A stretch of 64,000 bases of DNA from a virus (taxonomy: Duplodnaviria; Caudoviricetes), in IMG/VR virus record IMGVR_UViG_3300013936_000011, positions 82,601 to 146,600 of that record. One strand, 5' to 3'. Positions 7,675 through 58,374 of the stretch are shown in pieces. Under the pieces are notes generated by a model. That model did not search any database, was not told where the DNA came from, and saw only the letters and a list, made by a program, of their open reading frames with translations. Both the position numbers and the translations under genes were made by a program. The stretch's first letter is position 1, and each line of letters opens with the position of its first letter.

Positions 7675-10600
7675 ATGATATCTTATAAAGCACTTACACG
7701 TGCCAGCATCACCTTACAACTTATCGATGATATAGGACTATATGATTCAGAGATATTCTCTAGTAATGGTTTATTATTACAACCTTATGATCGAAGTACA
7801 ACTTTAACTGGAATTATATATAAGAATAATAGAGATATCACTTCTGAGATAAAAGATATTAGATGGACTATGTGGTCTCCCGACGCATCTAATTATGCTA
7901 CAGATGAAGAATGGAACGAAAACCATAAAGGCTCAAATGTAATAGAAGTAACTTCTGATGAAATTGATAGTAAATGCGTTATTCAATTCGAAGCTTATAA
8001 AAAGAATAAGATGAATGAAGATGAACTTATTGCATGTAGCCATATAACATTAGTAGATATTAATGACTTAATAGCCGTAACCGAAAAACCTGATAATCCT
8101 TATGATGGACAATTATGGGTTGATACTTCAACAGATCCTGCTACTATATGGGTTTATAAAAATGGTAAATGGAATAGAGTTGGAACAGTAGACGCAATAG
8201 TTAAGAACTTAATTAGAAACTCTGCTTTTACTACATTTACTAATAAATATTATGATGTAGTCGGTAGCACTGTTTTATCTTATACTCCTTCTGTATTTCA
8301 ACGAGGAAGTTATAACTGGTTAAAGTTACAATCAGATGTAGCTATTGATGCAGAGCGTGGTGTATCATATACAGTATTTGATGAAGATATCAAAACTAAT
8401 TCTGATTATAGTTTTCAGATGTTAGCATATGCTACGTCAGCAACATCTGCTGTAGACAATAGAATAAATGTAAGAATATGTTCTATCGATGAAAGTAATA
8501 CAGAGACTGCTTTATATGAATATAAAGATTTAGAAATAACAACTGATGTATGTAAGTTCTTTACATCTTTTAAAACTCTACCAAATACAAAGACTATTAA
8601 GATATATATAACTGGTCGTAATGGTTCAGTGTACGATTTTAATATTTCACATTTAGCTTTATATAATACTGCTAATGATTATCCATGGCAACCACATCCA
8701 GATGATGCTTCACTTATATTGGATCAAGAAACTGTATTTAATGCATTAACTAATAACGGCACAGTTAAAGGCTTATATTCTATTCGTGACCCTAAAACTG
8801 GACAATTACAAATATACTTTAATGCTAATTATATACAATCAGGTACAATAAAAGGTGATCGTATAGATGCTCGTAACTTAACTGTTATTCGCGATGACGG
8901 CATTAAGACTCTTGAAATAACAGACAAGGGAGAAGTTAATCTTATCGTTAATTCATTTAAGCTTTCTTCTACTGGACAAACAATAGAAGATTTTATACTT
9001 GATTCTATTGATTTAAATGATAGTGGACAACTTAAATATCTGTTAAAGCAAATACAAAAAGAGAGCTCTGAAGCTGATGCTATATATACTGAGTTATATA
9101 ATACAGATGAATTAAAAGATGCTACATATAGCAAAGAGACTGCTACAGATTTAGATTTATCTATGTATACTAATGAAGCTAGTAGCGGACAACAAAGAGC
9201 TCGTAGACGTTCTATTATTACTCCAGGTTCAGATACAGGTGAAGAAAAGCTGCCTTCATTTGTATTAGGACAGTCTAAACTTGGATATGCAGTTCTTGGA
9301 GAAACAGGTTCTGGCAATTTAAAAACTATATTATATAATGTTAAACGTTCATATAATGGCGATACAGATAGATTAATTGCTAAGATAGAAGAGAGAATAG
9401 CAGAGATTGAAAAAGGTGGTAAAGCTAAAACTCAGGCTATTGCTATTTATTCTAACGATGAAATAATAGAAGAATCTACACTAGAAGATTTATACACAGT
9501 CTATATTGATAAATATTCATTATTAAAAAGAGTATTTGTAATATGTCAAGACGCTGTAGGCATAGTTAGATTAACAGTGGTAACTGATAGATGGTCTAAA
9601 CTTGAAGTTGAAACTAACCAAATATTATCTGAAGTTGGAGAAGTTAAAAAGTATTATGCTGGACCAGAGGGCGAAGAACCTACTTTATTAGAAGCGATAG
9701 GCTCAATAGCATCTGAAAAGATAACTCCTGAAGCTATAGTAAATATAGTACAAAACGGAGTAGTTGATGTTGATAAGGATCCACAGAAAGTATCTGAAAT
9801 AATATCTCAAACTGTAATTAATCAAACTGCTAGTGATATAGACATGTCTGCAGAGAATCTAAAGCAAGGATTAAAATCTTCATTTGACTTAAGTATTAAC
9901 GGTATTAAATTAGGCACTAAGGATGCTGATGGAAATACTACGTTAATAGATATGCATGGTGATACTGTACAAATAGCAGCACCTCAAATAGATTTAAGCG
10001 GTTATGTAACATTTAGTAAATTCGGTGATGAGTTTAATAAGAATTTTACTACTAGTTTTGATAAAAGTTTCAATGATAGTTTTGGTAAGAAATTTGATGA
10101 TAGCTTTACAATTAATTTAAATAAAGCATTCAAAGGAGAGTTACCAGATATAACTACTATAAACGGTGGTTTAATTACTACTAATACTATTTTAGGTAAC
10201 GCATTAGTTACTAATACAATAACTACTGATAAATTAGCAGCTGATGTATTGACTGCTAATAATATTAAAACAGGTAATCTACAAGGAACTAATAGTAAAA
10301 GCTATTTCGATCTTGATAATGGTACGTTTAGATTGGCTAATGCTGATAAAACATTCCTTACTTTTGATGGAAGTAAATTAAGCTTTGGAGATGTTGCAGC
10401 TAGTGACTTAGGTATATTAGTAGATGATGTTACAGGAGTTTTACCTTCTTGGGTTAAAGACTGGAATGGTAGAACTGTTGAAATAGATAATGAAAATATA
10501 GTAGGGGTTCGTGCTTTTCTTGGACATAAAGAAGGAACTGAACTAACTGGTATAGGACTAGGTGTTGATTTAGGAACTAATACTGGCGAAGAAGAATTTA

Positions 10601-12627: not shown

Positions 12628-15032
12628 TGAGTACATCATGCAAATTGACGGTAACAGAAACTAGCGTCGACCAAGCGAATAATAAGAGTACTATATCAGT
12701 AAAGCTTACTGCAACAACTACTGGACAATCGCACAATAATTATACATCAGGATCCTATTTCCCTAAAGGCACTATCACTGTAAATGGTACTTCGTATAGC
12801 ATAGGACGTACATTGCCATATAACTCTACTGTTACTTTATATAATAAATCTCACACTATAACACATAACTCTGACGGGAGTAAGAGCGTAACTGTTAAAT
12901 ATAGTTTCAATACACATATATATGATGGAACATTAACAGGCAGTAAGACTTTAAAACTAACAGATATATCGATAGATAAAAAATCGACACCAACTGCTAG
13001 CTCAAGTAGTGTTTATATTGGCAGTTCTATAACTATAGATATGAATCCATATATGAGTTCATACACTCATTCAATAAGCTATAAATTTAATGGTGGCACT
13101 ACAAATATGACTAGTGGACTTAGTGCAACAAGTGGAATTAAGGACTCATGTACATTCACACCTCCATCAAGTTTATTGAATTATATGGACCCGGATTCTA
13201 CATCAGCTAATGCAGTGTTTACTGTAAATACTTATAAATCTAGTGGAACATTAATTGGTTCAAGTACATTTACGGTTGCAGTTAAAACATCTGCTACTTC
13301 TTATCCTCCTGTTATGGGAAGCATTTCTGCTTCTGTATATAATAATGGTTCACCGTTTAGTAATATATATGTTAAAAATTATAATGGCGTTAAATTATCT
13401 TTTAGCGCCACTGCTCAGCAAAATGCTGGTATTGTTTCTTATAAAATAACAGGTGGTGGAGTCAATACCACAGTTACTAGCAATACATATACAATACCTA
13501 AATTAATATCATCAGGTAGCATAACTTATACTGTTACTGCTACTGATACTAGAGGTGCTACTTGTTCTGGTAGCGTTAAAATAACAGTTAATACATATTC
13601 TCCTCCTTCTATAAATAACGTAACTACTGTACGTTGCGACCAAAATGGCACTCCGGCGGATGACGGAAAATATATTAAAGCAGATGTATCTGCTACGTAC
13701 AGCAATATAGGAAACAATCAAAGTGGTTCTATAATAGTCAAAATACAATATGCATCAAACGGTGGAAGCTATAATTCAGGAAATAATTTAACTGTTAGTA
13801 AAAGTTCTGGTACTGCTATGGCTACAGGAATAATTGGCGGAAGTCTTAGCGATGGATCTTATAATGTTTTATACACTATAACTGATGCATATAATAAACA
13901 AACAACTTATGAAGATATACTAAGTACTATGTTCTATGTTCTAGATATAAATTCTGGCGGAACAAGTGTTGGTATAGGTGCAGCAGCTAGTGATGCTAAT
14001 CACGTATTAACTATAGGGATGGAGCAGATAGTTTTCCCTAATACTACTTCTTTAGATTTAGGTGTTAGTGGACTCGATTTTGCTTCTGATACATTCCAAA
14101 TAACAAGTAAAGACACTACATTAAATAACACTTCTTTAGCATTAAACAATACTTCTTTAACGTTAAAGAATAAAAACACAACTTTAAATAGCACTGTCAG
14201 CATGACATTAGATGCAACTACTTTGAATTTAGATTCTACTGCTATGAATATAAATTCAACTAGTGTAACTTCAAGTGCTGAATTTTTAGAATATACGAAA
14301 TCTTTGACTATAACTTCAAGCGGTATAACTATAAATAATAATGGCATTAATGATATACAGTTTAATTCTGATTATGTACGTATAAAAGAAGGCGCAACGT
14401 TAGCTGCAGTTGGTTGGGCAAGTAGCGGATCTACTTCAACTAATAGTTTTAATTTAGGACGTATATATTGCGAAAGCGGAATTGATATGCCAAATAATAT
14501 AGCTTACAGATGTATCAATAGTACAGATGCAATACTGCCTTGTATGTTTATAAACGCTTCTAATTATTGTTTCTTAAGTCATAACGATTTAACTGGTACA
14601 GTTTTGCGTGGCAAGACTGTTAAGTTATCAAGTGCTTCAGGTACTACCGTAACTTCAGACGAAAGGGTTAAGAAGGATTTCAAAACACTTGAAGGATATG
14701 AAGATTTCTTTATGAGTTTAAAGCCTATAGCATATAAATATCTGACAGGAACTAGTGACAGATATCATGTAGGATTTAAAGCACAAGACGTTAAAAGTTC
14801 ATTAGAAAATAATAAGCTTACTACTCAAGACTTTGGAGGTTATGTTGAGACAGATCCTGATACAGATTTTTATATGGAAACTTTAGGATATGATCCATTT
14901 GATGGAGGTAAAATGTGCGCATTATCTTATGAAGAGTTTGTAGGTTTGGCTGTATATATGATTCAAAAACAACATGACCAAATTGAAGAATTAAAAGATC
15001 GTGTTGCAGTATTAGAAAGAGGTGATAACTAA
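12627..15032 (+). CDS. Tail spike/minor tail protein (DUF859-like) with C-terminal peptidase S74 intramolecular chaperone
   Basis: N-terminal SVDQANNKS...ITHNSDGSKS; ATDTRG, YSPPSI, RCDQNGT motifs; C-terminal SDERVKKD...LKPIAYKY...HVGFKAQDV...LSYEEF plus coiled coil. Confidence 0.85.
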   Translation: MSTSCKLTVTETSVDQANNKSTISVKLTATTTGQSHNNYTSGSYFPKGTITVNGTSYSIGRTLPYNSTVTLYNKSHTITHNSDGSKSVTVKYSFNTHIYDGTLTGSKTLKLTDISIDKKSTPTASSSSVYIGSSITIDMNPYMSSYTHSISYKFNGGTTNMTSGLSATSGIKDSCTFTPPSSLLNYMDPDSTSANAVFTVNTYKSSGTLIGSSTFTVAVKTSATSYPPVMGSISASVYNNGSPFSNIYVKNYNGVKLSFSATAQQNAGIVSYKITGGGVNTTVTSNTYTIPKLISSGSITYTVTATDTRGATCSGSVKITVNTYSPPSINNVTTVRCDQNGTPADDGKYIKADVSATYSNIGNNQSGSIIVKIQYASNGGSYNSGNNLTVSKSSGTAMATGIIGGSLSDGSYNVLYTITDAYNKQTTYEDILSTMFYVLDINSGGTSVGIGAAASDANHVLTIGMEQIVFPNTTSLDLGVSGLDFASDTFQITSKDTTLNNTSLALNNTSLTLKNKNTTLNSTVSMTLDATTLNLDSTAMNINSTSVTSSAEFLEYTKSLTITSSGITINNNGINDIQFNSDYVRIKEGATLAAVGWASSGSTSTNSFNLGRIYCESGIDMPNNIAYRCINSTDAILPCMFINASNYCFLSHNDLTGTVLRGKTVKLSSASGTTVTSDERVKKDFKTLEGYEDFFMSLKPIAYKYLTGTSDRYHVGFKAQDVKSSLENNKLTTQDFGGYVETDPDTDFYMETLGYDPFDGGKMCALSYEEFVGLAVYMIQKQHDQIEELKDRVAVLERGDN

Positions 15033-15586
15033 TGACTGAGTATACTCTATCAGATTTTAAAAATCTTAATTTCGTCGACGGCAACATATTAAATGCTTAT
15101 GAGATGAATATTTTAAAACAATTCGTTTCTACTGCATATCAAGCAACTCTTACTCAATTAGCTGTCAATAACATTCATGTTGGACCAGAACCACCTACTC
15201 AAGAACAGTACGGTGAAAACTATAAAAACATGTTATGGATTGATACTAATGATAATGCTGATGCTGGTATTGACGATTCTACAATGGGAATTATATCTGA
15301 TTTAACAGATACAGTACAAAACCTAAGTAAACAACTAGAAGAGTTACAAAGACAACTTGCATTGATAATTGCAGGTGGTGGAGGCACAGGACCTATCAGC
15401 AAGCTCAATGATTGTCTTGAATTGGAAGACGGAAGTTTATTCACGCTTGAAGATGGTAGCTTCTTGAAACTTGAATTTGCCTCTAAACCTGATGACGATA
15501 AAGATTTATCTTTTGAAGGTTGCGGTTTAGCTTTAGAAGATGGATCAATAATGATTACAGAAGATGGTTATATTTTATTGCTTTAA
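15032..15586 (+). CDS. Small fibre adaptor-like protein
   Basis: 184 aa built of short motifs: F.DG.IL.A.EMN, GPEPP...LWIDT, coiled coil, GGGG, and two LEDGS...EDG..L.L motifs. Confidence 0.7.
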   Translation: MTEYTLSDFKNLNFVDGNILNAYEMNILKQFVSTAYQATLTQLAVNNIHVGPEPPTQEQYGENYKNMLWIDTNDNADAGIDDSTMGIISDLTDTVQNLSKQLEELQRQLALIIAGGGGTGPISKLNDCLELEDGSLFTLEDGSFLKLEFASKPDDDKDLSFEGCGLALEDGSIMITEDGYILLL

Positions 15587-15611: not shown

Positions 15612-15618
15612 AGTAATA
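15612..15618 (+). promoter_or_regulatory. Putative late promoter motif AGTAATA (internal, no terminator seen upstream)
   Basis: Same motif and similar distance to the RBS as the other copies. Confidence 0.5.
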
Positions 15619-15641
15619 TTTTTAAGAATGGAGGCGATATA

Positions 15642-18197
15642 ATGGCAACTGAAACTAAAAAATTAAGTGCGTTAACAGAAGTAATTACTGTTAATGATAA
15701 TGACTATTTGCTTATCGTACAAAACGGTGATAGCAAAAAAGTACAAGCTAGTAAGCTACAAGGTGCCAAGAATTTAAGCGAAAAATATGTTGATTTAGTA
15801 TCAACTGATAATACTGATAAGAAATTTAGAATGATATTAAGAGACGATGGTGAACCTATCGTTTATCCAATGGAAGTATTTACTGCTGAAGGTTGGAAAC
15901 AAGGTGACAATTTAAACGTGCCTTTTAAAACTGCAGCTGGCTCAGGTATGGCAAAAGTAGCAACTGCTGATATAGAAACTTTATTTATAAATCAAATGTA
16001 TGGTGGAGGTACAGGTACTGCAGGTACTGTAGAAACTTCTGTTAGCCATAGCTTTGTTGAATTATACAATAATAGTGAAGTAGACATAAATCTTAAAGGA
16101 TTATATTTAAACTATAAAGCTAAATCAGGTACATGGCAATCATTACCTTTAAGAGGTATAATACCAGCTCACTGTTCTTTCTTAGTAAGAGGCGGAGCTC
16201 ATTATAATATAAATAGCGACTTAGTAAGACTTAAAATAAAAGATTATGATCAAAGCTGGGATATACAATTTTCTGATGAAGGTTTTTCTATGTATCTATC
16301 AATAGGAGAATGCGCTGAAGAAACTCCTGTTAAATTCACTAAAAGTAGTACAGATAATAAAATAATATCAGCTAATCAACAATGGGTTGATGTAATAGGA
16401 GCTGGCGGGTTAACTAGTGAACAAACAGTCCCTCTATATGATGGAGAACAGTTTATTATGGGTATGAGTAGAAATACTGCTGTACGTAGAAAAACATTTT
16501 TTAATAATAGTACTAGTTTATCTAATTGCGAAATAATTGATTACAAAACATGTAACGTTGATGCGTACAGACCTAGATGTACAAGAGATGGAGTCTGGAA
16601 AGAAAATGTAAGTGAAACACAAATAAAAAGCGATATACCTAATATAGTAAATATGAGTTTTGGTAAAGATGAATTTACTAGAACATTTACTTGGCAATCA
16701 ACAGATTTCGATAAAGGCTTTTTAAAATATAAAAAAGAAGGAGACAAAGAATGGACTAAAGTAGAAGCTGAATCTGATGTTATAAGCCAATATGACAAAC
16801 AAGTGCAAGTTCATCATGTTATAATAAGAAACTTAACTCCTGGTACTTATTATTACAAAGTAGGTACTACAGGATACTACAGTGATGAAGAAGCATTCGA
16901 CGTTAAAGATTATTCTACAGATGGTTTTAAATTTTTATGGACTACAGACCAACAAGGATGGAATGGATTCGAATATGATATGTGGGACGAAGCATTTAAA
17001 GGTATTAAATACTATGAATATACTGATGGTGTTCCTAACTTTGATTTTCATATGAATACAGGAGATATGTCACAAAATGGTAACAGATATTTTGAATGGA
17101 AATACTATTTTGATTATGCTGACGATACTGTTAAGAATATGCCTCATGTATGTACTATAGGAAACAATGACCTTGTTGAAAAGAAATACGGTTATGTATT
17201 TGATTACTATAATACATTAGATGATGCTCCAAGATTAGCAGATGTGAGTCCATACGATAAATTTGCTACAACTGGATATGGTTCTCCAGCTGAAGAAAGA
17301 AATGAAAAGATGGTATCAACTTGCAGCTATACTCTTGGTGGATTCTGTCACTTCATAAATCTTAATTCTAATACTGAATATATGTATGAAGGATTAAATA
17401 CAGATCAATTCTTAACTAAAGAATGCGCATTCCTAGAAAAAGACTTACAAGAAGTAGCAGCTAAGCGTGCTAGTGGAGAAATAAAATGGGTTATAATCTA
17501 TATGCATCTTTCTCCTATGACAATAGTTAGAACAAAGAGATTACAAAGATTCATACCTATAATTGAAAAGTATAAAGTAGATCTTGTTTTATGCGGACAT
17601 AACCATACTTATTCTAGAAGTATACCTGTATATAGCGGATATATGGGAGACATAGCATATGATGGTAAAGGTAAATACACTACATCTCCTTATAACGATT
17701 ATGTAACTAAAGTATCAACAGGTTCAAGTGAGTTATTATTAGTAGACGAAACTCAAAGCGATGGTTCTGATATTAATAGAAAACCTGATAAAGTTAATGG
17801 TACACATTATATTATGCTTCAAGCTGCTGGATATAAACTTAGCGGTAAAGAAAAAGCAATAATATTCTCTGAAAGTCAAATAGATGCTAAACACATGTCA
17901 CGTAATTGGGAAGAAGATCCTAACGGTGCTACTACAGTACTTAGACCATGGTGGTATAGCTATGCAGGTAAATTACCTGTTCAACCTACATATGCAATGC
18001 TTAATGTTACTCCAGAACAAATAGAATATACTGGTTATTATTTTACAGACTTATCTGTTAAGGATCCAGACACAGGACTTGTTATACAACCTAAGTTTGA
18101 TTCTACTAAAAACGGTAGAGCTCAATTCGATCATCTTGTTATCACATATGCAGAAAGACATCCTAGCGAAACTGAATCTGATAACACTACAGAATAG
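15642..18197 (+). CDS. Lamin-tail-domain + FN3 + purple-acid-phosphatase-like metallophosphoesterase, probably virion-associated
   Basis: LTD signature INQMYGGG...SFVELYN...INLKGLYL; PAP N-terminal FN3 (HHVIIRNLTPGTYYYKVG); motifs TDQQ, TGDM, GNND, MH, LCGHNHTY; fibre-type N-terminus KKLSALT...DYLLIVQNG. Confidence 0.8.
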   Translation: MATETKKLSALTEVITVNDNDYLLIVQNGDSKKVQASKLQGAKNLSEKYVDLVSTDNTDKKFRMILRDDGEPIVYPMEVFTAEGWKQGDNLNVPFKTAAGSGMAKVATADIETLFINQMYGGGTGTAGTVETSVSHSFVELYNNSEVDINLKGLYLNYKAKSGTWQSLPLRGIIPAHCSFLVRGGAHYNINSDLVRLKIKDYDQSWDIQFSDEGFSMYLSIGECAEETPVKFTKSSTDNKIISANQQWVDVIGAGGLTSEQTVPLYDGEQFIMGMSRNTAVRRKTFFNNSTSLSNCEIIDYKTCNVDAYRPRCTRDGVWKENVSETQIKSDIPNIVNMSFGKDEFTRTFTWQSTDFDKGFLKYKKEGDKEWTKVEAESDVISQYDKQVQVHHVIIRNLTPGTYYYKVGTTGYYSDEEAFDVKDYSTDGFKFLWTTDQQGWNGFEYDMWDEAFKGIKYYEYTDGVPNFDFHMNTGDMSQNGNRYFEWKYYFDYADDTVKNMPHVCTIGNNDLVEKKYGYVFDYYNTLDDAPRLADVSPYDKFATTGYGSPAEERNEKMVSTCSYTLGGFCHFINLNSNTEYMYEGLNTDQFLTKECAFLEKDLQEVAAKRASGEIKWVIIYMHLSPMTIVRTKRLQRFIPIIEKYKVDLVLCGHNHTYSRSIPVYSGYMGDIAYDGKGKYTTSPYNDYVTKVSTGSSELLLVDETQSDGSDINRKPDKVNGTHYIMLQAAGYKLSGKEKAIIFSESQIDAKHMSRNWEEDPNGATTVLRPWWYSYAGKLPVQPTYAMLNVTPEQIEYTGYYFTDLSVKDPDTGLVIQPKFDSTKNGRAQFDHLVITYAERHPSETESDNTTE

Positions 18198-18208
18198 GAG
18201 TGATGTAA

Positions 18209-21200
18209 ATGTCTATTAAATACCATAACGACAAGACTGGCAAATGGGAAATCATCGCTTCTAACAAAGCTTCTGATATAGCGATTAATGATAATGAAAG
18301 TAATTTTGATTCTAATAATGTAGAAGGAGCTTTAAAGGAAGTTGGTGGATTAGCAAAAGCCAATAATATAAAATTAAGTGAAATAGACGGAAGAGTACAA
18401 TACATAGAAGAACATGGAACTACAGGGGGCGGCGGTAGCGGAGGCGGCGCCCTTCCTACTATAACTTCAGAATATAGTGCTACTATAATAGATGCCAATG
18501 AAGAACAAATAATAAAAATATTCTTTTCTTCTCCTAATCTAGGAAGCGGTACTTGTTATATAGTATGTAATGATATAGAATTATTAACCGTTCCAGTTGA
18601 CCAAGGATATAATAATATAACTATACCAGCTCTTGGTAGCGGTACATTTAAATTATCTTTATATGTAAAAGACAGAGCTGGATTATTATCTAATACTTTA
18701 AACTGGAATTTAACAGCAGGTGGATTAACTGCTACTTTAACTATGAATACTAGTCTAGACTATTCAATTACTGATAGAATTCTTATGACTTATAATGTTG
18801 AATATTCATTAGATGATGAGATAACAATGTATTTAACAGTTGATTATGATGATTATACAGTCATTTGTTCTAAAGGATATAACAGTTATAATTTGACAGG
18901 CCTAGGAGTTGGGATACATAAAGTATCATTCTATCTTAAAGCTGGACCATATTCTACAAAAACTCAAACATTTAATGTTGTAGTAGTTAATACAGAAGAC
19001 TTATATGTATCTTCTACTACTGATTCAAAATTAAGTATGGAAGAGGGAGATCCATTATCTATTAACTATCGTATATCTAAAAAGAGTGCTGAATATTTTG
19101 ATGTACAGATTACTGTAGACGATAAATTAGTATCACAAAGACAAAGTATAGTTGGTAACTATTATTATAACAATAATACATTGCCAATAGGTACCCATGT
19201 AATTAAGATATCTGTCACTTCAGAAAGTGGCGAATCTTCAGAACTTGTATTTAATGTTGAAATAACTGCAGGTTCTTATATTAGAAAACAAATAGTTACT
19301 GGTGGGCTAATTGCTAACTGGGATGCTACAGGTTTATCTAATCAAGATGCTAATAAAACTAAATGGGTAGATAAAGTAAGTGGTATAGAAGGTGAATTAT
19401 ACAACTTTAACTATTCATCTAATGGATGGATAACTGATAATGATACTAACGAAACATATCTAGCATGCAATGGTAACACGTACGTTAAAATACCATATGC
19501 TCCTTTTGCAAATAATGTTACAACAGGATTTACTATAGATATATTATTTAGAACTAGAGACGTCGGAGATATAGATGCTCGTGTTCTTGATATAACAGAC
19601 ACACTTGCTCCTTACAAAGGAGTTTATATAGATACACAAAATGCTCATTTAATATCTGCTATTCATGATATTAATTCAGCTGTTGGTGATGACGAATGGA
19701 CACGTGTAACGTATGTAATAGATAGACTTAATAAGTTTGGTAAAATATATATCAATGCAATATTAAGTTCAGCATTTTATTTAACAGATGATTCTAGTGG
19801 TAGTTCTATTAGATATGAAGATTTTATGCATAATGAGTATATCTATTTAAATAGTTTTAAAGGTACAGGACACTATGGTTCTTGTGAGATAAGATGTTTA
19901 AGACTATACGAAAGAGAACTTAATGATGAAGAAGTACTACAAAATCATATAGCCGATATAGTAAATACAGCTGAACAAAAAGCAAAATATGATTTCAACT
20001 ATAATAACAATGGCATTCCTAAGATGTATTTCTGGGGAGATACTACTGAAATGTCATTAACACAAAAGAAAACTATGCGTATAAAATACGTATCTCCTAA
20101 TAATGAAGAATACGGCGAAAGCTTTGATTATCCTTATTGCAAAGTATACTGGCAAGGTACATCTTCACTTACTTATGTAAGAAAGAATTATAATATAGAA
20201 TTGTTTGATGAAGACCAGAGAGCAATAAAATATACTCCTTTTAAAACTGGTAAAGCAGAAAATGTTCTATGTTTAAAAGTTAACTACATGGAAAGTTCAA
20301 ACGTAAATAACGTAGGACTTGCTGAGTTTGCTAATAACGGATTATATTCTAAGAAGAATCCTGCACAAGAATTGGATCCAGATGTGAGACAAACTATAAC
20401 AGGTTTCCCTATCTTAGTATATATCAATGATGAATGTATGGGACTATATGATTTCAACTTAGATAGATATAGTACTAACTCATTCGGATATGACCTAATC
20501 GATGAAACATTAGCATATGAAGTTTCAGCTAATACAGATGCTACAGCTGGTGCATTTAATAAATGGACTTCTGCTAGTGGACAAGGTAAAATAGATTATT
20601 ATGCTTCAGACTTTGAAGTAATTTATCCACCTTCTAAGATGAATGGTAATGATGATTATGCAGATTTAATAACTTTAATAGAATTTGTTAGTGATGCAGA
20701 TGATGAGTATTTTAAAGCTAAGTTTGATGAATTCTTTGACAGGGAATCTGTATTTAGATATTTATTATTTGTATTAGTATTTGGTATGGTCGATTCACTT
20801 GGTAAGAACATGAAGCTCGTTACTTTCGATAGAAAGAAATGGTACATACAATTATACGACTTAGATACAGCTATGGGTCTTGACAATACTGGTGCTTTAA
20901 CATTTGATGTTGATATAGAAATAGAAAAAGGTACATTCAATACTTCTACATCTCAATTATGGACTAAAATATTAAGAGTATTTGAAGCAGAATTAAAACA
21001 AGAATATGCTAGTATGAGAAACGAACAGTTCACTCTTAAAAACATAATGCATTATATATATGATGAACAAATGTCTAAGATACCTGAAGTTTATTATAAT
21101 GAAGCTGCACAAGTTAGATATTTAGACTTTGGCGGTAAATTCTTATATGCATTACACGGTAGTAGAGAATATCAAATCAAAAGATGGATTAGAGAAAGAT

Positions 21201-33044: not shown

Positions 33045-36000
33045 ATGGCTAGAAAATTTAATGCAGGTAGACAAGGCGAGTATCTAATGAACTCTCAATT
33101 GTTTGATGTATATAATGCTCTTAAATATATCAATTATAAAAATGTCACACCTACTCAAGATAAGCAAGCTGAAATACCAGATGGTGCTTTATGGGTAGAC
33201 ACTAGTCAAGGAACTAACATTTTAAAAAGATATGTAGCAGCATCACGTGATTGGATACCTATGTTTGAAGGATACTTTCAACCTTTGCCTATAACAGAAA
33301 ATCCTGTTAATCCTAGCGACGGACAAATCTGGATAGATCCTTCTGGAGTAATCAGATATTACGATAAACAAACTGCTAAGTGGAATGTAGCAGCAGCTAG
33401 ATCAGCAGCTAATGCAAATATATCTACAGCAGGTATACCTAATTTCTATATAACTCCAGAATTAAAATCATCATTTACAGATACTTATTCAGTTTCAAAT
33501 GTTAGTATAGGTAAATTATTTAGATATGATTCTCCAGAATCTGGTCGAGGATCTTATGTAGACGGTAGCCAATATGAAGATATAAATACTGTAGCAGTAT
33601 ATTATCCTAATAGTGCTAAATATGATTTAGCTTGGTGTAATGTTAACCCAGTAAGACTTAGTGGAAGTACTAAAAGACTTATAAAAGTAATAAATACAGA
33701 ACCTGGAGATGATCAGTACTTTGTAGAAACTACTACAACTAATACTGAGTTTTATGGTTTTAAAGAAGGAGACATTACTGGTACATTCTTAAGAAGTAGA
33801 GAATTAGTTTATGGCTCTGAAGATATAAGTAGCGAAAAGATGGCTAGTATAATAGCTTCAGATACTATCAGTGATTATGTAAGAGTCACAGGTGGAATTA
33901 AATTAATTAATAAAGGTAAGGATTACAAATATATATATGCTATCACTTATCATTTCGCAGATTCGGCTGAAAGAAATGACGGAGTTGTCTTATCAAATGG
34001 TACAACAATTGGTGAGATAAATGAAATAGAAGTTGGTGATATAAATGATAATAACCCTACATTATTCTTAGATGGTATATATCTTGAACAAAAAGATTAT
34101 TCATACGATAAAACAACTGGTATAATGAAATTTAATGGCGATGGAATTACTAATAGAATGTCTATGGTAGCAGTATCATTTACTCACACTCTATGTGAAT
34201 CTATAGGTGATGACGATATTATATTTAGCAATACTGAAATAGTAGATAACGATATAGTTATTAATAATTCTAGTGCATTAACAGATATAGATAGCTGGAC
34301 TACTCCAATAGCATTCGTATCTGGGGTTGCAGGTTTTGAACAAATAAGCGACCAAGTTACAATAGATAAAACGACTAATAGTATTACTGTTAAGGATTTC
34401 GGACCAGTTCTAGAAAATGAAAGCTATAGCATAATGTTAGTAGACATAGGTTCTGAGACTTATGATCATGGTACAGCAACTAAGAATGCTATTACAAGTG
34501 ATATTATAGTTTCAGATACAAGCGTGAAATATCTATTATTCATAGATGGTGTTTGTATGTCTCCTAAAGATCTTGTTATAAGTAATGGTCAAATAACTAT
34601 CTCTGGTGATTTATCTAATGATGTTGAATGGTTCTTAATAAGAATATCAAATACTGATACAGGTATTTATTTAATGTTCGATGAAGATGTATCATATTAT
34701 ACTACAATGATAACTGACCATAATAATAATACTATATATAATAATGCAGATATGGTTGTTGCATATTCTAAGAAACAAGGCTCTGAAACTTACGGTGTAT
34801 TAATAGATGATAAGTTTATTACAGATACTCCTGATGGCCTTACTAAATATGTAACAGGTCAAGTATTAAATATGGGTTATGAAGATGAATTAGGCGATAT
34901 TCAATATGCTTATCATATTTATAATAGCGACGGTACATATACATGGAAGAAATATGATGATGTATATGGAGAGAATAGTTACTTGGAAGTAGATGATATG
35001 GTTACTCAATATGCTACTGAAGGTTCATTATCTATAATGAGTAACAAGGGACTTGTAGGCTCTAATTTATACTATTATGCTTACACTTATGCAGATACAA
35101 TAGACGAACCTATTAGAATGGGTAGTAGAACATGTAAAATCAATTCATCAGAAGCTCCTGTCGTTGGTGATACTCAAGCTTTCTATACAAATAAGAATGA
35201 AGTATTTTTACATGGTAAAGGTTGTATAGCAGCATACGTTAATGGTATTATGCAAGAAGTCAGCGATACAACTACTATGGCTACATGTGAATTTATCATA
35301 CCTACAACTGTAGCTGATCCATATAAACAAAAATGGGGCAAACAAGAAGAGTTATATGCTATGTTTAAAGCATTTGATGATACAGTAACTCTTGGTAATC
35401 TTAAACAATTCATGGTCGACAATGGCGTTACATCTCTAGCAGCTTCAGAAGACGTTTACAATAAAATAAAAGTCTTACATGATGCAATAACAGAGTATGA
35501 ATCTGAAAATTCATTATGTTATATATTCGAAGAAATAGAAGCTGAAGAAAGTTATTCTGCTAATAGATTAACTGCAGATGCATCAATGAGATACGATATA
35601 TTCCCTAACACATATATATTTGAAAACTATTCTATAGGTGCGGGTACTATAAACGTATATCTTAACGGAGTATTCTTAGAAAAATCATGCTATTCAATAT
35701 TTGATGGAAACAAAATTATGATAAATAATATCGATACTGTAGGTGGTTCTGATCAATGGACTAAAGACGGAGACCATTATACAGATATGAAATACTACGA
35801 TGAATCTGATGGTACAGTTAAATGGATAGAATGTGACGAATGTGATTATGTAACTCTTGAGTTTAGACCTGATAATTCAGTTAAGAAAGTCACATATGAT
35901 GTAAAACAAATATCATATGATACGCAAAGTTTTGATACAGAAGATTATGAATTTCCAAGTTCTCTTAAGAACTCTAAGGACCTTATAAAAATATATATAA

Positions 36001-55750: not shown

Positions 55751-57208
55751 ATGGCTGATTTTAATAAAAAGTTAGTTGATCAAGCTGCATTGGAAGCCTT
55801 AGCTAAAGGTCTTAATGACAAATCTAAAGCTGCTGTCGAAGCAGAAAAAGCTAGAGCTCAAGAAGCTGAACAAGCAGCTAAAGATGCTGCTGATGCTGCT
55901 AAAAGTACTGCTGATAGCGCTGCAGCTGATTTAGTTAATGTTAAAAAAGATATAGCAGATTTAACTTCTACCGATAGTGGTGCAGTTAAACAAGCTAAAG
56001 ACTATACTGATGCTGAAGTTAAAAAAGTTTCAGATATAGTAGGTAAAGCTGCTGTTCCTGGCGAAGGTGATGCTGAAGGTACTCCTGCCACTGGTTTAGT
56101 TGCAAGAGTTGATTCTGCTGACAGTAAAATTGCTGGTTTAGAAACAGCTAATGAAGATGAAGAAAAAAGAATAGCTGCACTAGAAACTAAAGTAGGTGCT
56201 GCTAAAGTAGAAGGCGAAGAAGCTCAAGCTGCTACTGGTCTATTTGCAGAAGTAGATAGATTAGATAAAAAAATAGATGACTTATCTATACCTAGCGTAG
56301 ATGGTTTAGCTACTACAGAATATGTTGACGGTAAAGTAAGTGATTTAATAGGTGGAGCTGATGAAGCTTACAATACATTAAAGAAATTAGAAGACGAGTT
56401 AAAAGATGGTGATAACACTGTATCTGGACTTGTTACTCAAATAGCTGAAAAAGCTGATAAAGATCATAATCATGACGATGTATATGCTAAAATAGACCAT
56501 AATCATGATGATGTATATGCTGCAAAAGAACATACGCATTCAACTGCAGATGTTAAATATACTAACGAACAATATCCAGAAATGGAATCTGTTGCTGATG
56601 CATTAGATCAATTACTATATGTTACACCTACTGTTAAAACATTCTCTTCAACTCCTGCATTTGGTGATTATGAAATAGGTTCAACTGTTTCTAATCCTAA
56701 ATTTACATGGACTTATAATAAAGCTATAACTAACCAAAACTTAAAAGCTGGTGGAACTACTATAGCTTTAGATGACCCAGCAGTTAGAGAATACGCTTAT
56801 ACAGGAGATATAACAGCTAATACTACGTTTACTGTATCTGGTAATGATAATAAATTAAAAGCATGTTCAAAAACTGGTTCATTCAACTTCAAACATAAAA
56901 GATATTTTGGTGTTGCAGAAGTACCAGCTGAATACGACAGTGCTTTTGTATTAGGTTTATCTGGTAAAGAATTCTGTACAAACAGACAAAAAGGATCATT
57001 TAGTTTAACTGCAGGAGCTGGAAAATATATGTTCTATTGCTTCCCTGCAAGTTATGGAACTCCTACTTTTAATGTAGGTGGATTCGATGGTGGCTTTGAG
57101 TTGGCGGCTACTATAGATTTTACTAATGCTAGTGGTAATACTACTTCATTTGTAATCTATAAATCAGAAAACGCTAATCTAGGAACTCAAAGTATAATAG
57201 TTAAATAA
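55751..57208 (+). CDS. Coiled-coil fibre protein
   Basis: EKARA..AE, ATGL.A, LIGGA.EAYNTLK and HNHDDVY x2 motifs; C-terminal beta domain. Confidence 0.75.
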   Translation: MADFNKKLVDQAALEALAKGLNDKSKAAVEAEKARAQEAEQAAKDAADAAKSTADSAAADLVNVKKDIADLTSTDSGAVKQAKDYTDAEVKKVSDIVGKAAVPGEGDAEGTPATGLVARVDSADSKIAGLETANEDEEKRIAALETKVGAAKVEGEEAQAATGLFAEVDRLDKKIDDLSIPSVDGLATTEYVDGKVSDLIGGADEAYNTLKKLEDELKDGDNTVSGLVTQIAEKADKDHNHDDVYAKIDHNHDDVYAAKEHTHSTADVKYTNEQYPEMESVADALDQLLYVTPTVKTFSSTPAFGDYEIGSTVSNPKFTWTYNKAITNQNLKAGGTTIALDDPAVREYAYTGDITANTTFTVSGNDNKLKACSKTGSFNFKHKRYFGVAEVPAEYDSAFVLGLSGKEFCTNRQKGSFSLTAGAGKYMFYCFPASYGTPTFNVGGFDGGFELAATIDFTNASGNTTSFVIYKSENANLGTQSIIVK

Positions 57209-57222
57209 GGAGGTGGACTTAA

Positions 57223-58374
57223 ATGGCAATTACATTAATTAGTAATATCAAACAAGCTAATAACGGTACATTCTGGCTTGTAGATAGTAATGATATACGT
57301 GGTGGTTTATACCATGTTGATAGTGTAGCAGAAATGAATGTCCTACCTACTGATAACTTAAAAGAAGGTATGTTGTGCTACGTTGCTGCTGAAGAAAAAT
57401 TCTATCAATACAAAAAAGACGCAGACGGACAACTTAAATTCGATGTATGGAAAGTTGGATTCGATAAAGAAGAAACTTTCACAGAATTAAGCAATAAAAC
57501 TATAATCAATTCTATTATAGCAAATTCAGATACATTAACTAACTTACAAAAACAAGTTGATGCCATTACAGGTACGGGTGAAGGTGGCGACGCTACTACT
57601 ATAGCAGGATTAAATGCTCAATTAGCATCATTAAAAACTACTGTAGGTAAAGCAACTGAAGGCGATACTGCTGCAACTGGCTTATTTGCTAGAATAGAAG
57701 CATTAGAAAAACAATTAACTGCTCATACTCATGAAATAGCAGATGTAACTGGTTTACAAACTGCATTAGATGATAAAGCAGTTAAAAGCGATTTTGATGC
57801 ATTAAAAGAATTAGTTGGTACATTACCAGAAACTGCTACTGCAAGTAACGTTGTTGGTTATGTAGATGAAAAAGTAGCTGCTTTAGTTGATGGGGCTCCT
57901 GAAACTCTAGATACTTTAAAAGAATTAGCAGATGCGCTAAATAATCAACCAGATGCTATAGCTGCTTTAACAAACTCAATAAGTCAAAAAGCTGATGCTT
58001 CTGCATTAGAAGCTTTACAACAAACTGTTGAAAAAAATAAAGGCGTATCAGATACAGTTAGTACTAAAGTAGATGCTTTAGATGCTATATTAAATGGATT
58101 TGGTGGAGCTGATGAACCTGCTACAGTTAAAGATTCTTTAGAAGAATTAAAAACTACATTAGCTACTAAGGTTGATCAAAACACTGTTAACACTTCAATA
58201 GCTAATGCTGTAAATAAATTTGCTTTATCTGGCTCAGAAGACGATAGCAATTTAACTATATCACTTGATTTCGGTGATGGCGAAGGTGCCGTTCAACTTG
58301 GTAAAGTTGATATACCAGTCATTACTGTAAGTGAAGTACAAACAATAATAGATAATTTAGATAAAACTGTATAA
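57223..58374 (+). CDS. Coiled-coil fibre protein
   Basis: N-terminal IKQ.NN..F.LVD..DI.GG...LKEGMLCYV; HTHEIADVTGLQ.ALD; LVDGAPETLDTLKELADAL. Confidence 0.75.
   Translation: MAITLISNIKQANNGTFWLVDSNDIRGGLYHVDSVAEMNVLPTDNLKEGMLCYVAAEEKFYQYKKDADGQLKFDVWKVGFDKEETFTELSNKTIINSIIANSDTLTNLQKQVDAITGTGEGGDATTIAGLNAQLASLKTTVGKATEGDTAATGLFARIEALEKQLTAHTHEIADVTGLQTALDDKAVKSDFDALKELVGTLPETATASNVVGYVDEKVAALVDGAPETLDTLKELADALNNQPDAIAALTNSISQKADASALEALQQTVEKNKGVSDTVSTKVDALDAILNGFGGADEPATVKDSLEELKTTLATKVDQNTVNTSIANAVNKFALSGSEDDSNLTISLDFGDGEGAVQLGKVDIPVITVSEVQTIIDNLDKTV

Follow-up and report, generated by a model that had tools for sequence, protein, structure and literature searches.

Changes in phage host range are explained by adapter and anchor-branch systems through the swapping of enzyme heads, and most of what is known about such systems comes from coliphages and Klebsiella phages. 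The adapter gp37 of the phages K1-5, K1E and SP6 carries two tailspikes, which are docked by short N-terminal peptides (PMC6872550, summarising Leiman 2007), while a cryo-EM structure of the phage crAss001 shows gp22 seated in the tail hub through its residues 1-26 and bearing further fibre proteins (PMC10172136). The present analysis concerns a small protein of 184 amino acids (aa), encoded by the open reading frame (ORF) 15032-15586 in a DNA stretch of 64,000 nucleotides (hereafter referred to as the window) that forms the final 64 kb of the 146.6-kb IMG/VR virus record IMGVR_UViG_3300013936_000011 (CheckV completeness 56%). Its gene is followed by those of an 851-aa phosphoesterase (PE; an LTD-metallophosphoesterase) and of a 2836-aa CotH/LRR protein (hereafter the giant), both of which begin with a leader that is conserved in other phages. 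The 184-aa protein is proposed here to be one piece of a two-piece enzyme fibre, its detached stalk subunit, linking the PE and perhaps the giant to the virion, a reading to which a probability of about 0.55 is assigned and which is supported by the synteny of the three genes and by fused forms of their products.

A profile was searched exhaustively against 1.8 billion representatives and identified 45 proteins, about 40 of which are distant relatives of 115-786 residues. The family has a common module, which consists of a strand ending in Gly, a Pro-containing loop and a strand with an invariant Trp (usually as WIDT), followed by an acidic linker, a coiled coil with a heptad pattern ending at a linker rich in Gly and Pro, and one to eight LEDG double units. 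The 184-aa protein shows the features of this family, namely the G/P/W hairpin, the coiled coil running up to a Gly linker, two LEDG double units and the position at the head of the gene triad.

The genomic context of the small gene was readable in nine divergent lineages (the window with L002-4; L005; L042/47; L043; L049; L044-46/50; L051-56; L060, a contig of a Clostridium sp. metagenome-assembled genome; and L061), on contigs of 45 to 205 kb. The order small protein, PE orthologue and CotH giant orthologue was found in 9/9 lineages, with the small gene directly adjoining the PE gene in every case save for one gene inserted in L044, and with PE orthologues sharing 29-76% pairwise identity between lineages. 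A survey of synteny had been put forward as a check by the initial annotation of the window, made from its sequence alone, and the triad was recovered from either end. Searches starting from the PE identified eight further divergent loci, each with a giant orthologue (in L049 interrupted by inserted genes) after the PE; a module protein of 173-241 aa lies directly 5' of the PE in seven of these, L044 being the eighth. Searches starting from small proteins with other N-termini added three more lineages (L051-56, L060 and L061) with the same three genes; among the other queries used, P0018, P0054 and alignment A5 had no match in viral_contigs. The 48.8-kb siphophage contig L005 encodes a distant relative of the small protein, then a full-length PE orthologue (33% identity, E 1e-132) and then a CotH giant orthologue (35% identity).

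The gene inserted in L044 (L044:3367-5922), between the small gene and the PE gene, encodes an 851-aa protein with GH16 and Big_2 domains and a PE-type leader, which would fit a socket shared by the two enzymes. A remnant of the GH16 gene of 79 codons is present in L046 (5703-5942), and the gene is lacking in L045 and L050, whose small proteins carry one LEDG-like unit as against two in L044. The PE gene is itself broken by inserted ORFs in some of the loci (L049:7411-9495, L051:8938-10276, L052:8959-11750, L055:8959-11908), as is the giant gene in L049 (11578-15070); these ORFs, one of them GIY-YIG-like in L049 and several with paired-Cys motifs, look like homing-endonuclease or intron insertions. 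In L061 (L061:3499-6099) the cassette follows an Amidase_3/SH3 endolysin gene and small ORFs that are holin-like by appearance, and thus lies away from the main block of tail genes, as a mobile add-on would.

The hairpin and the coiled coil also occur as part of the PE polypeptide in other phages. Using tblastn, gp353 of Bacillus phage G was identified as an orthologue of the giant, leader included, and gp352, a 'metallophosphoesterase' encoded by the preceding gene, was found to align with the PE of the window only from PE residue 44. The hairpin and the coiled coil of the small protein lie in the first ~197 residues of gp352, with residues 41-113 of the small protein aligned to residues 46-109 of gp352 by hhalign (E 2.6e-5). 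With hmmsearch, the small-protein profile matched the N-terminal extensions of three PE proteins, namely gp352 (E 1.3e-8), gp88 of the Bacteroides phage DAC22 (E 4.9e-14) and gp084 of the crAss-like IAS virus (E 1.1e-16). The gene after the fused PE begins with a giant-type leader in all three genomes, and phage G has no separate small protein. The PE leader is absent from the three fused proteins, no LEDG units were seen in their translations when these were read by eye, and a linker with an Mtd_N-like motif is present where the LEDG units and the leader would stand. The LEDG units and the PE leader occur together in 9/9 split forms and are both missing in 3/3 fused forms, which is the pattern expected of the two faces of a non-covalent joint.

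The conservation of the individual parts was examined by pairwise BLAST among the nine lineages, which gives 36 lineage pairs. Similarity was detected in 36/36 pairs for the small-protein module (mean identity 32%), for the PE body (44%) and for the giant body (44%), in 29/36 pairs for the PE leader (39%) and in 33/36 pairs for the giant leader (48%), as against only 8/36 pairs for the small-protein N-terminus (40%). The N-terminus of the small protein of the window (residues 1-46) shows no detectable similarity to the other eight lineages, the remainder of the protein matching all eight. This distribution suggests that only the small protein adapts to the host phage; on the simplest reading of the sequences, its N-terminus alone would have to fit each phage chassis, and both enzymes would attach to something that travels with them. 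Within the 146.6-kb record the PE leader is carried by the PE alone and the giant leader by the giant alone.

Unrelated N-termini precede the module, five types being found among the database relatives and at least seven when the fetched loci are added, and they appear to behave as interchangeable virion anchors. One alternative type is also found at the start of collagen-like and other fibre proteins from ~30 viral contigs, and an N-terminus related to it opens the ORF 57223-58374 of the window. That ORF encodes a 383-aa protein with an N-terminus of the L051 small-protein type and is preceded by a 485-aa ORF (55751-57208), a homologue of the gene directly 5' of the small gene in L005 and L051 (41% and 31% identity, respectively); the arrangement suggests that anchor and socket gene pairs relocate together. 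Another shared anchor type in the window is an MLTK-type N-terminal peptide, which opens three fibre-like proteins (at 1085, 2590 and 45087).

In the proposed two-piece fibre, the lineage-specific N-terminus (residues 1-46) would plug into the phage's own structure, maybe the translationally coupled DUF859/S74 protein, the conserved hairpin and coiled coil would form a short and probably trimeric stalk, and the C-terminal LEDG hairpin units would hold the PE via its 43-residue N-terminal leader. The giant would probably join the same assembly through its own leader, since this leader was never seen without the hairpin-coiled-coil module, split or fused. The trimerisation, the incorporation into the virion and all of the physical contacts are inferred, and attachment to the tail specifically, rather than to the head, is putative. 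In line with the proposal, a CotH giant of the phage NatCom_3357 has a different N-terminus, and the genome has no PE, no small protein or module and neither of the leaders.

The first residues of the giant resemble the short hairpin after the WxDT motif of a 1650-aa tail protein of the window (a weak match, E 0.88), which would fit a pairing of WIDT with the giant and is only a lead. The N-terminal region of the giant (18209-18508) has a coiled coil of its own that ends in a Tyr/Trp-Leu-x-Glu-His-Gly run, closely like the end of the small-protein coiled coil in most lineages. The small-protein profile also weakly matches the N-terminal coiled-coil stretch of the giants of DAC22 (E 1.5e-5) and the IAS virus (E 1.6e-4).

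A more specific form of the proposal, which is possible and on balance unlikely, is that the LEDG hairpin units and the ~43-residue leader are two complementary parts of one trimeric beta structure that has been split, forming a plug-and-socket joint in place of the covalent Mtd_N-like linker of the fused forms. The enzyme heads (phosphoesterase, GH16) would then be exchangeable on one portable stalk in phages of Clostridia-type hosts and the giant leader would likewise complete the WIDT hairpin, the whole constituting an undescribed docking code for fibre assembly.

Several observations weigh against the proposed stalk. The AlphaFold2 (AF2) models of the monomer are poor (mean pLDDT 48 with 15 sequences and 58 with 47 sequences), and in phage G the two genes are located among non-structural ones. 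The module carries a strongly acidic charge (-9 to -27), yet the leaders are not basic (about +1 to -4), and in most lineages the LEDG units, 1 to 8 in number, bear no relation to how many partners there are. In this phage, translational coupling ties the small gene to its upstream neighbour, but a 55-nt gap with a promoter-like GTAATAT motif separates the small gene from the PE gene; gene fission, moreover, is no proof that both pieces still bind. The tethering of the phosphatase by an adaptor through LEDG, as put forward in the initial annotation, agrees with the joint loss of the LEDG units and the PE leader in the fused forms and finds no support in the occurrence of 1 to 8 units with the same partners. 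Two rules of pairing were considered and rejected, one between an acidic module and basic leaders, given the leader charges above, and the other of one LEDG unit per docked enzyme, which is true only in the L044/L045 lineage (two units with GH16 and PE, one with PE alone) and fails elsewhere, including the window.

The foremost alternative is that the small protein is an independent headless accessory fibre, in which the stalk was kept on the virion after fission and the LEDG units form its own distal knob, such as a tip that binds cations or surfaces, with the PE and the giant attaching elsewhere via their own leaders. In favour of this, the number of LEDG units varies freely, all three proteins have fibre-type N-termini of their own, the giant leader holds a motif common to many fibre families (PHROG matches), and non-essential accessory fibres are known, for instance FibU of 80alpha (PMC7048315). 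This explanation is nevertheless unlikely, as the leaders are conserved across unrelated chassis with only the small-protein N-terminus changing, are never found apart from the module, and, in the case of the PE leader, vanish along with the LEDG units in all three fused forms.

A role as a non-structural assembly chaperone absent from the virion, helping the two large fibre enzymes to trimerise in the manner of T4 gp57A and the tail-fibre assembly proteins, would suit a small and very acidic protein with a coiled coil that is always encoded beside two very large fibre proteins. It is distinctly improbable, since the N-termini are swappable anchor types common to true fibre proteins, in three phage groups the module and the PE fibre form one covalent chain, the gene lies upstream and not downstream of the presumed clients, and no chaperone family (T4 gp57A, Tfa/Caudo_TAP) was matched in Pfam, PHROG or NCBIfam. 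A chance ORF with fortuitous motifs or a mis-called gene, for which only the absence of a database family name speaks, is refuted by 14 close and ~40 distant homologues with invariant motif columns, together with the ribosome-binding site (RBS), the translational coupling and the conserved gene order, and may be dismissed as extremely unlikely.

The features of the locus are listed in Table 1. The motifs reported by the initial annotation are present in the 184-aa protein and conserved in its homologues, with F.DG.IL.A..MN at residues 14-26 and the IHVG...WIDT stretch at residues 48-72, and the non-catalytic leaders that it had described on both downstream genes are likewise real and conserved; its description of the protein as made almost entirely of docking motifs is an interpretation and not an observation. 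The motif positions are invariant in 14 homologue clusters of 64-98% identity, and four EDG tripeptides were obtained in 0/20,000 shuffles of the protein. G51, P55 and W69 are invariant across 25 aligned sequences, and P55 and W69 across 47. With the 47-sequence alignment, AF2 models the hairpin strands best (pLDDT ~80), places a helix at residues 82-114 and renders the LEDG region as short strands with low confidence.

In this model the WIDT motif forms one of the two strands of a structural hairpin at the coiled-coil base. The motif WxDT also occurs in the 1650-aa protein (8113-8190) and in a 1052-aa protein (33189-33260) of this phage, and WIDT is therefore a generic fibre element, contrary to the suggestion that it serves as a dedicated socket for the giant; nor does F.DG.IL.A..MN, being lineage-specific, hold up as a general docking code. 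In the 1650-aa and 1052-aa proteins a short Trp-containing hairpin directly follows WxDT, and the small protein is without such a hairpin.

No match to the small protein was found in Pfam, PHROG or NCBIfam, nor among the GenBank phages by tblastn with the small protein and two distant relatives. The PDB sequence library gave nothing meaningful for the family profile or for the two contiguous WxDT regions from neighbouring proteins, and the ESM Atlas only unnamed clusters, below 0.9. Literature searches on the motif letters, on CotH with tail fibre, and on phage G gp352/gp353 returned nothing useful.

Table 1. Features of the small-protein locus, in window coordinates.
Feature	Position	Strand	Basis or remark
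Tail protein with DUF859 and Peptidase_S74, 801 aa	12627..15032	+	Candidate attachment partner for the small-protein N-terminus; TAATG-coupled to the small gene
Putative stalk/adaptor protein, 184 aa, net charge -23	15032..15586	+	ORF call, RBS, TAATG coupling, homologues
Lineage-specific N-terminal region, residues 1-46, with F.DG.IL.A..MN	15032..15169	+	Presumed anchor to own fibre/baseplate
Conserved beta-hairpin (IHVG strand, PP loop, WIDT strand)	15173..15247	+	Invariant columns, AF2
Coiled coil, about four heptads, residues 87-114	15290..15373	+	Hydrophobic residues spaced 3-4-3-4
Gly run, residues 115-121	15374-15394	+	
LEDG double unit 1, residues 128-149	15413..15478	+	Motif read, alignments
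LEDG double unit 2, C-terminal, residues 166-184	15527..15583	+	Motif read, alignments
PE, 851 aa, fibre enzyme with LTD, Pur_ac_phosph_N and Metallophos	15642..18197	+	Pfam
PE conserved leader, residues 1-43	15642-15770	+	Leader alignment across phages; phage G orthologue aligns only from residue 44
Giant with CotH, DUF285 and BspA-type LRR, 2836 aa	18209..26719	+	Pfam (CotH, DUF285, LRR_5); phrog_9915 match, E 9e-131
Giant conserved leader, first ~45 residues	~18209-18343	+	Leader alignment; unique in genome
Giant coiled coil ending in Gly run, completing first ~100 residues	to ~18508	+	

The GC content is ~31%, with all genes on the + strand, and in the ORF listing of the record most genes from ~15 kb onward are of virion type, in one very long run. 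The ORF of the small protein belongs to a fibre-gene cluster, its 5' neighbours encoding the 521-aa, 1650-aa and 801-aa tail proteins, the last of these with DUF859 and Peptidase_S74. A good Shine-Dalgarno sequence precedes the small gene, whose ATG shares bases with the stop codon of the 801-aa gene in the overlap TAATG. The GTAATAT motif in the spacer before the PE gene (15613-15619) belongs to 44 occurrences in the 146.6-kb record, 6 of which lie at most 60 nt 5' of ORF starts, about four-fold over expectation; this copy and those near 1038, 33005 and 50785 represent a candidate phage promoter element.

Among the described systems, the closest functional analogue is the adapter of K1-5 and SP6, and the anchor-branch receptor-binding protein systems of G7C and the Klebsiella phages are likewise similar. 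As with gp37, a small headless protein, which would be trimeric and have a virion-fitting N-terminus, is encoded along with two enzymes whose heads would be exchangeable, and the two putative enzyme partners, encoded alongside, have conserved N-terminal peptides. The two systems have no sequence relation, the leaders are of ~45 residues here as against 7-11, and the hosts are Gram-positive or gut-associated. Searches for other known anchors in the small protein identified neither Phage_T7_tail nor any other Pfam match at E <= 0.1 that would point to a T7 gp17-like N-terminus, no match in Pfam or the PDB to a T4 gp10-like docking domain (at the sequence level only), and no Pfam or PHROG match to a BppU-like N-terminal Ig domain. 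FibU and FibL of 80alpha (PMC7048315), whose genes lie among those of the baseplate, likewise combine a modular N-terminal anchor with a stalk of the coiled-coil or collagen type; they differ in their BppU-type N-terminal domain and are not known to carry enzymes.

The gp22 of crAss001 is comparable as a hub-docked primary fibre bearing other fibre proteins, and it resembles IAS gp084 at the N-terminus (E 3e-4). It differs in its tailspike-type body and has no significant match to the small-protein or the leader profiles.

The homologous systems are IAS gp084, DAC22 gp88 and phage G gp352, in which the same hairpin and coiled coil precede the same PE body and are followed by a giant with the same leader; the first two also hold a small beta domain seen in several small-protein N-termini. 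In these three the stalk and the enzyme form one polypeptide with an Mtd_N-like linker, whereas here they are encoded by two genes and the LEDG units face a 43-residue leader. A separate stalk protein and the comparison of split with fused forms are the new elements of what would be a sequence-unrelated adapter-like system in uncultured gut or Clostridia-type phages, tied to a phosphoesterase and CotH/LRR pair that is widespread from crAss-like phages to Bacillus phage G. Taken together, split and fused forms mark the position of the stalk-enzyme joint and reduce it to a small peptide pair, the LEDG units and the 43-residue leader, which offers a handle on what both enzymes do on the particle.

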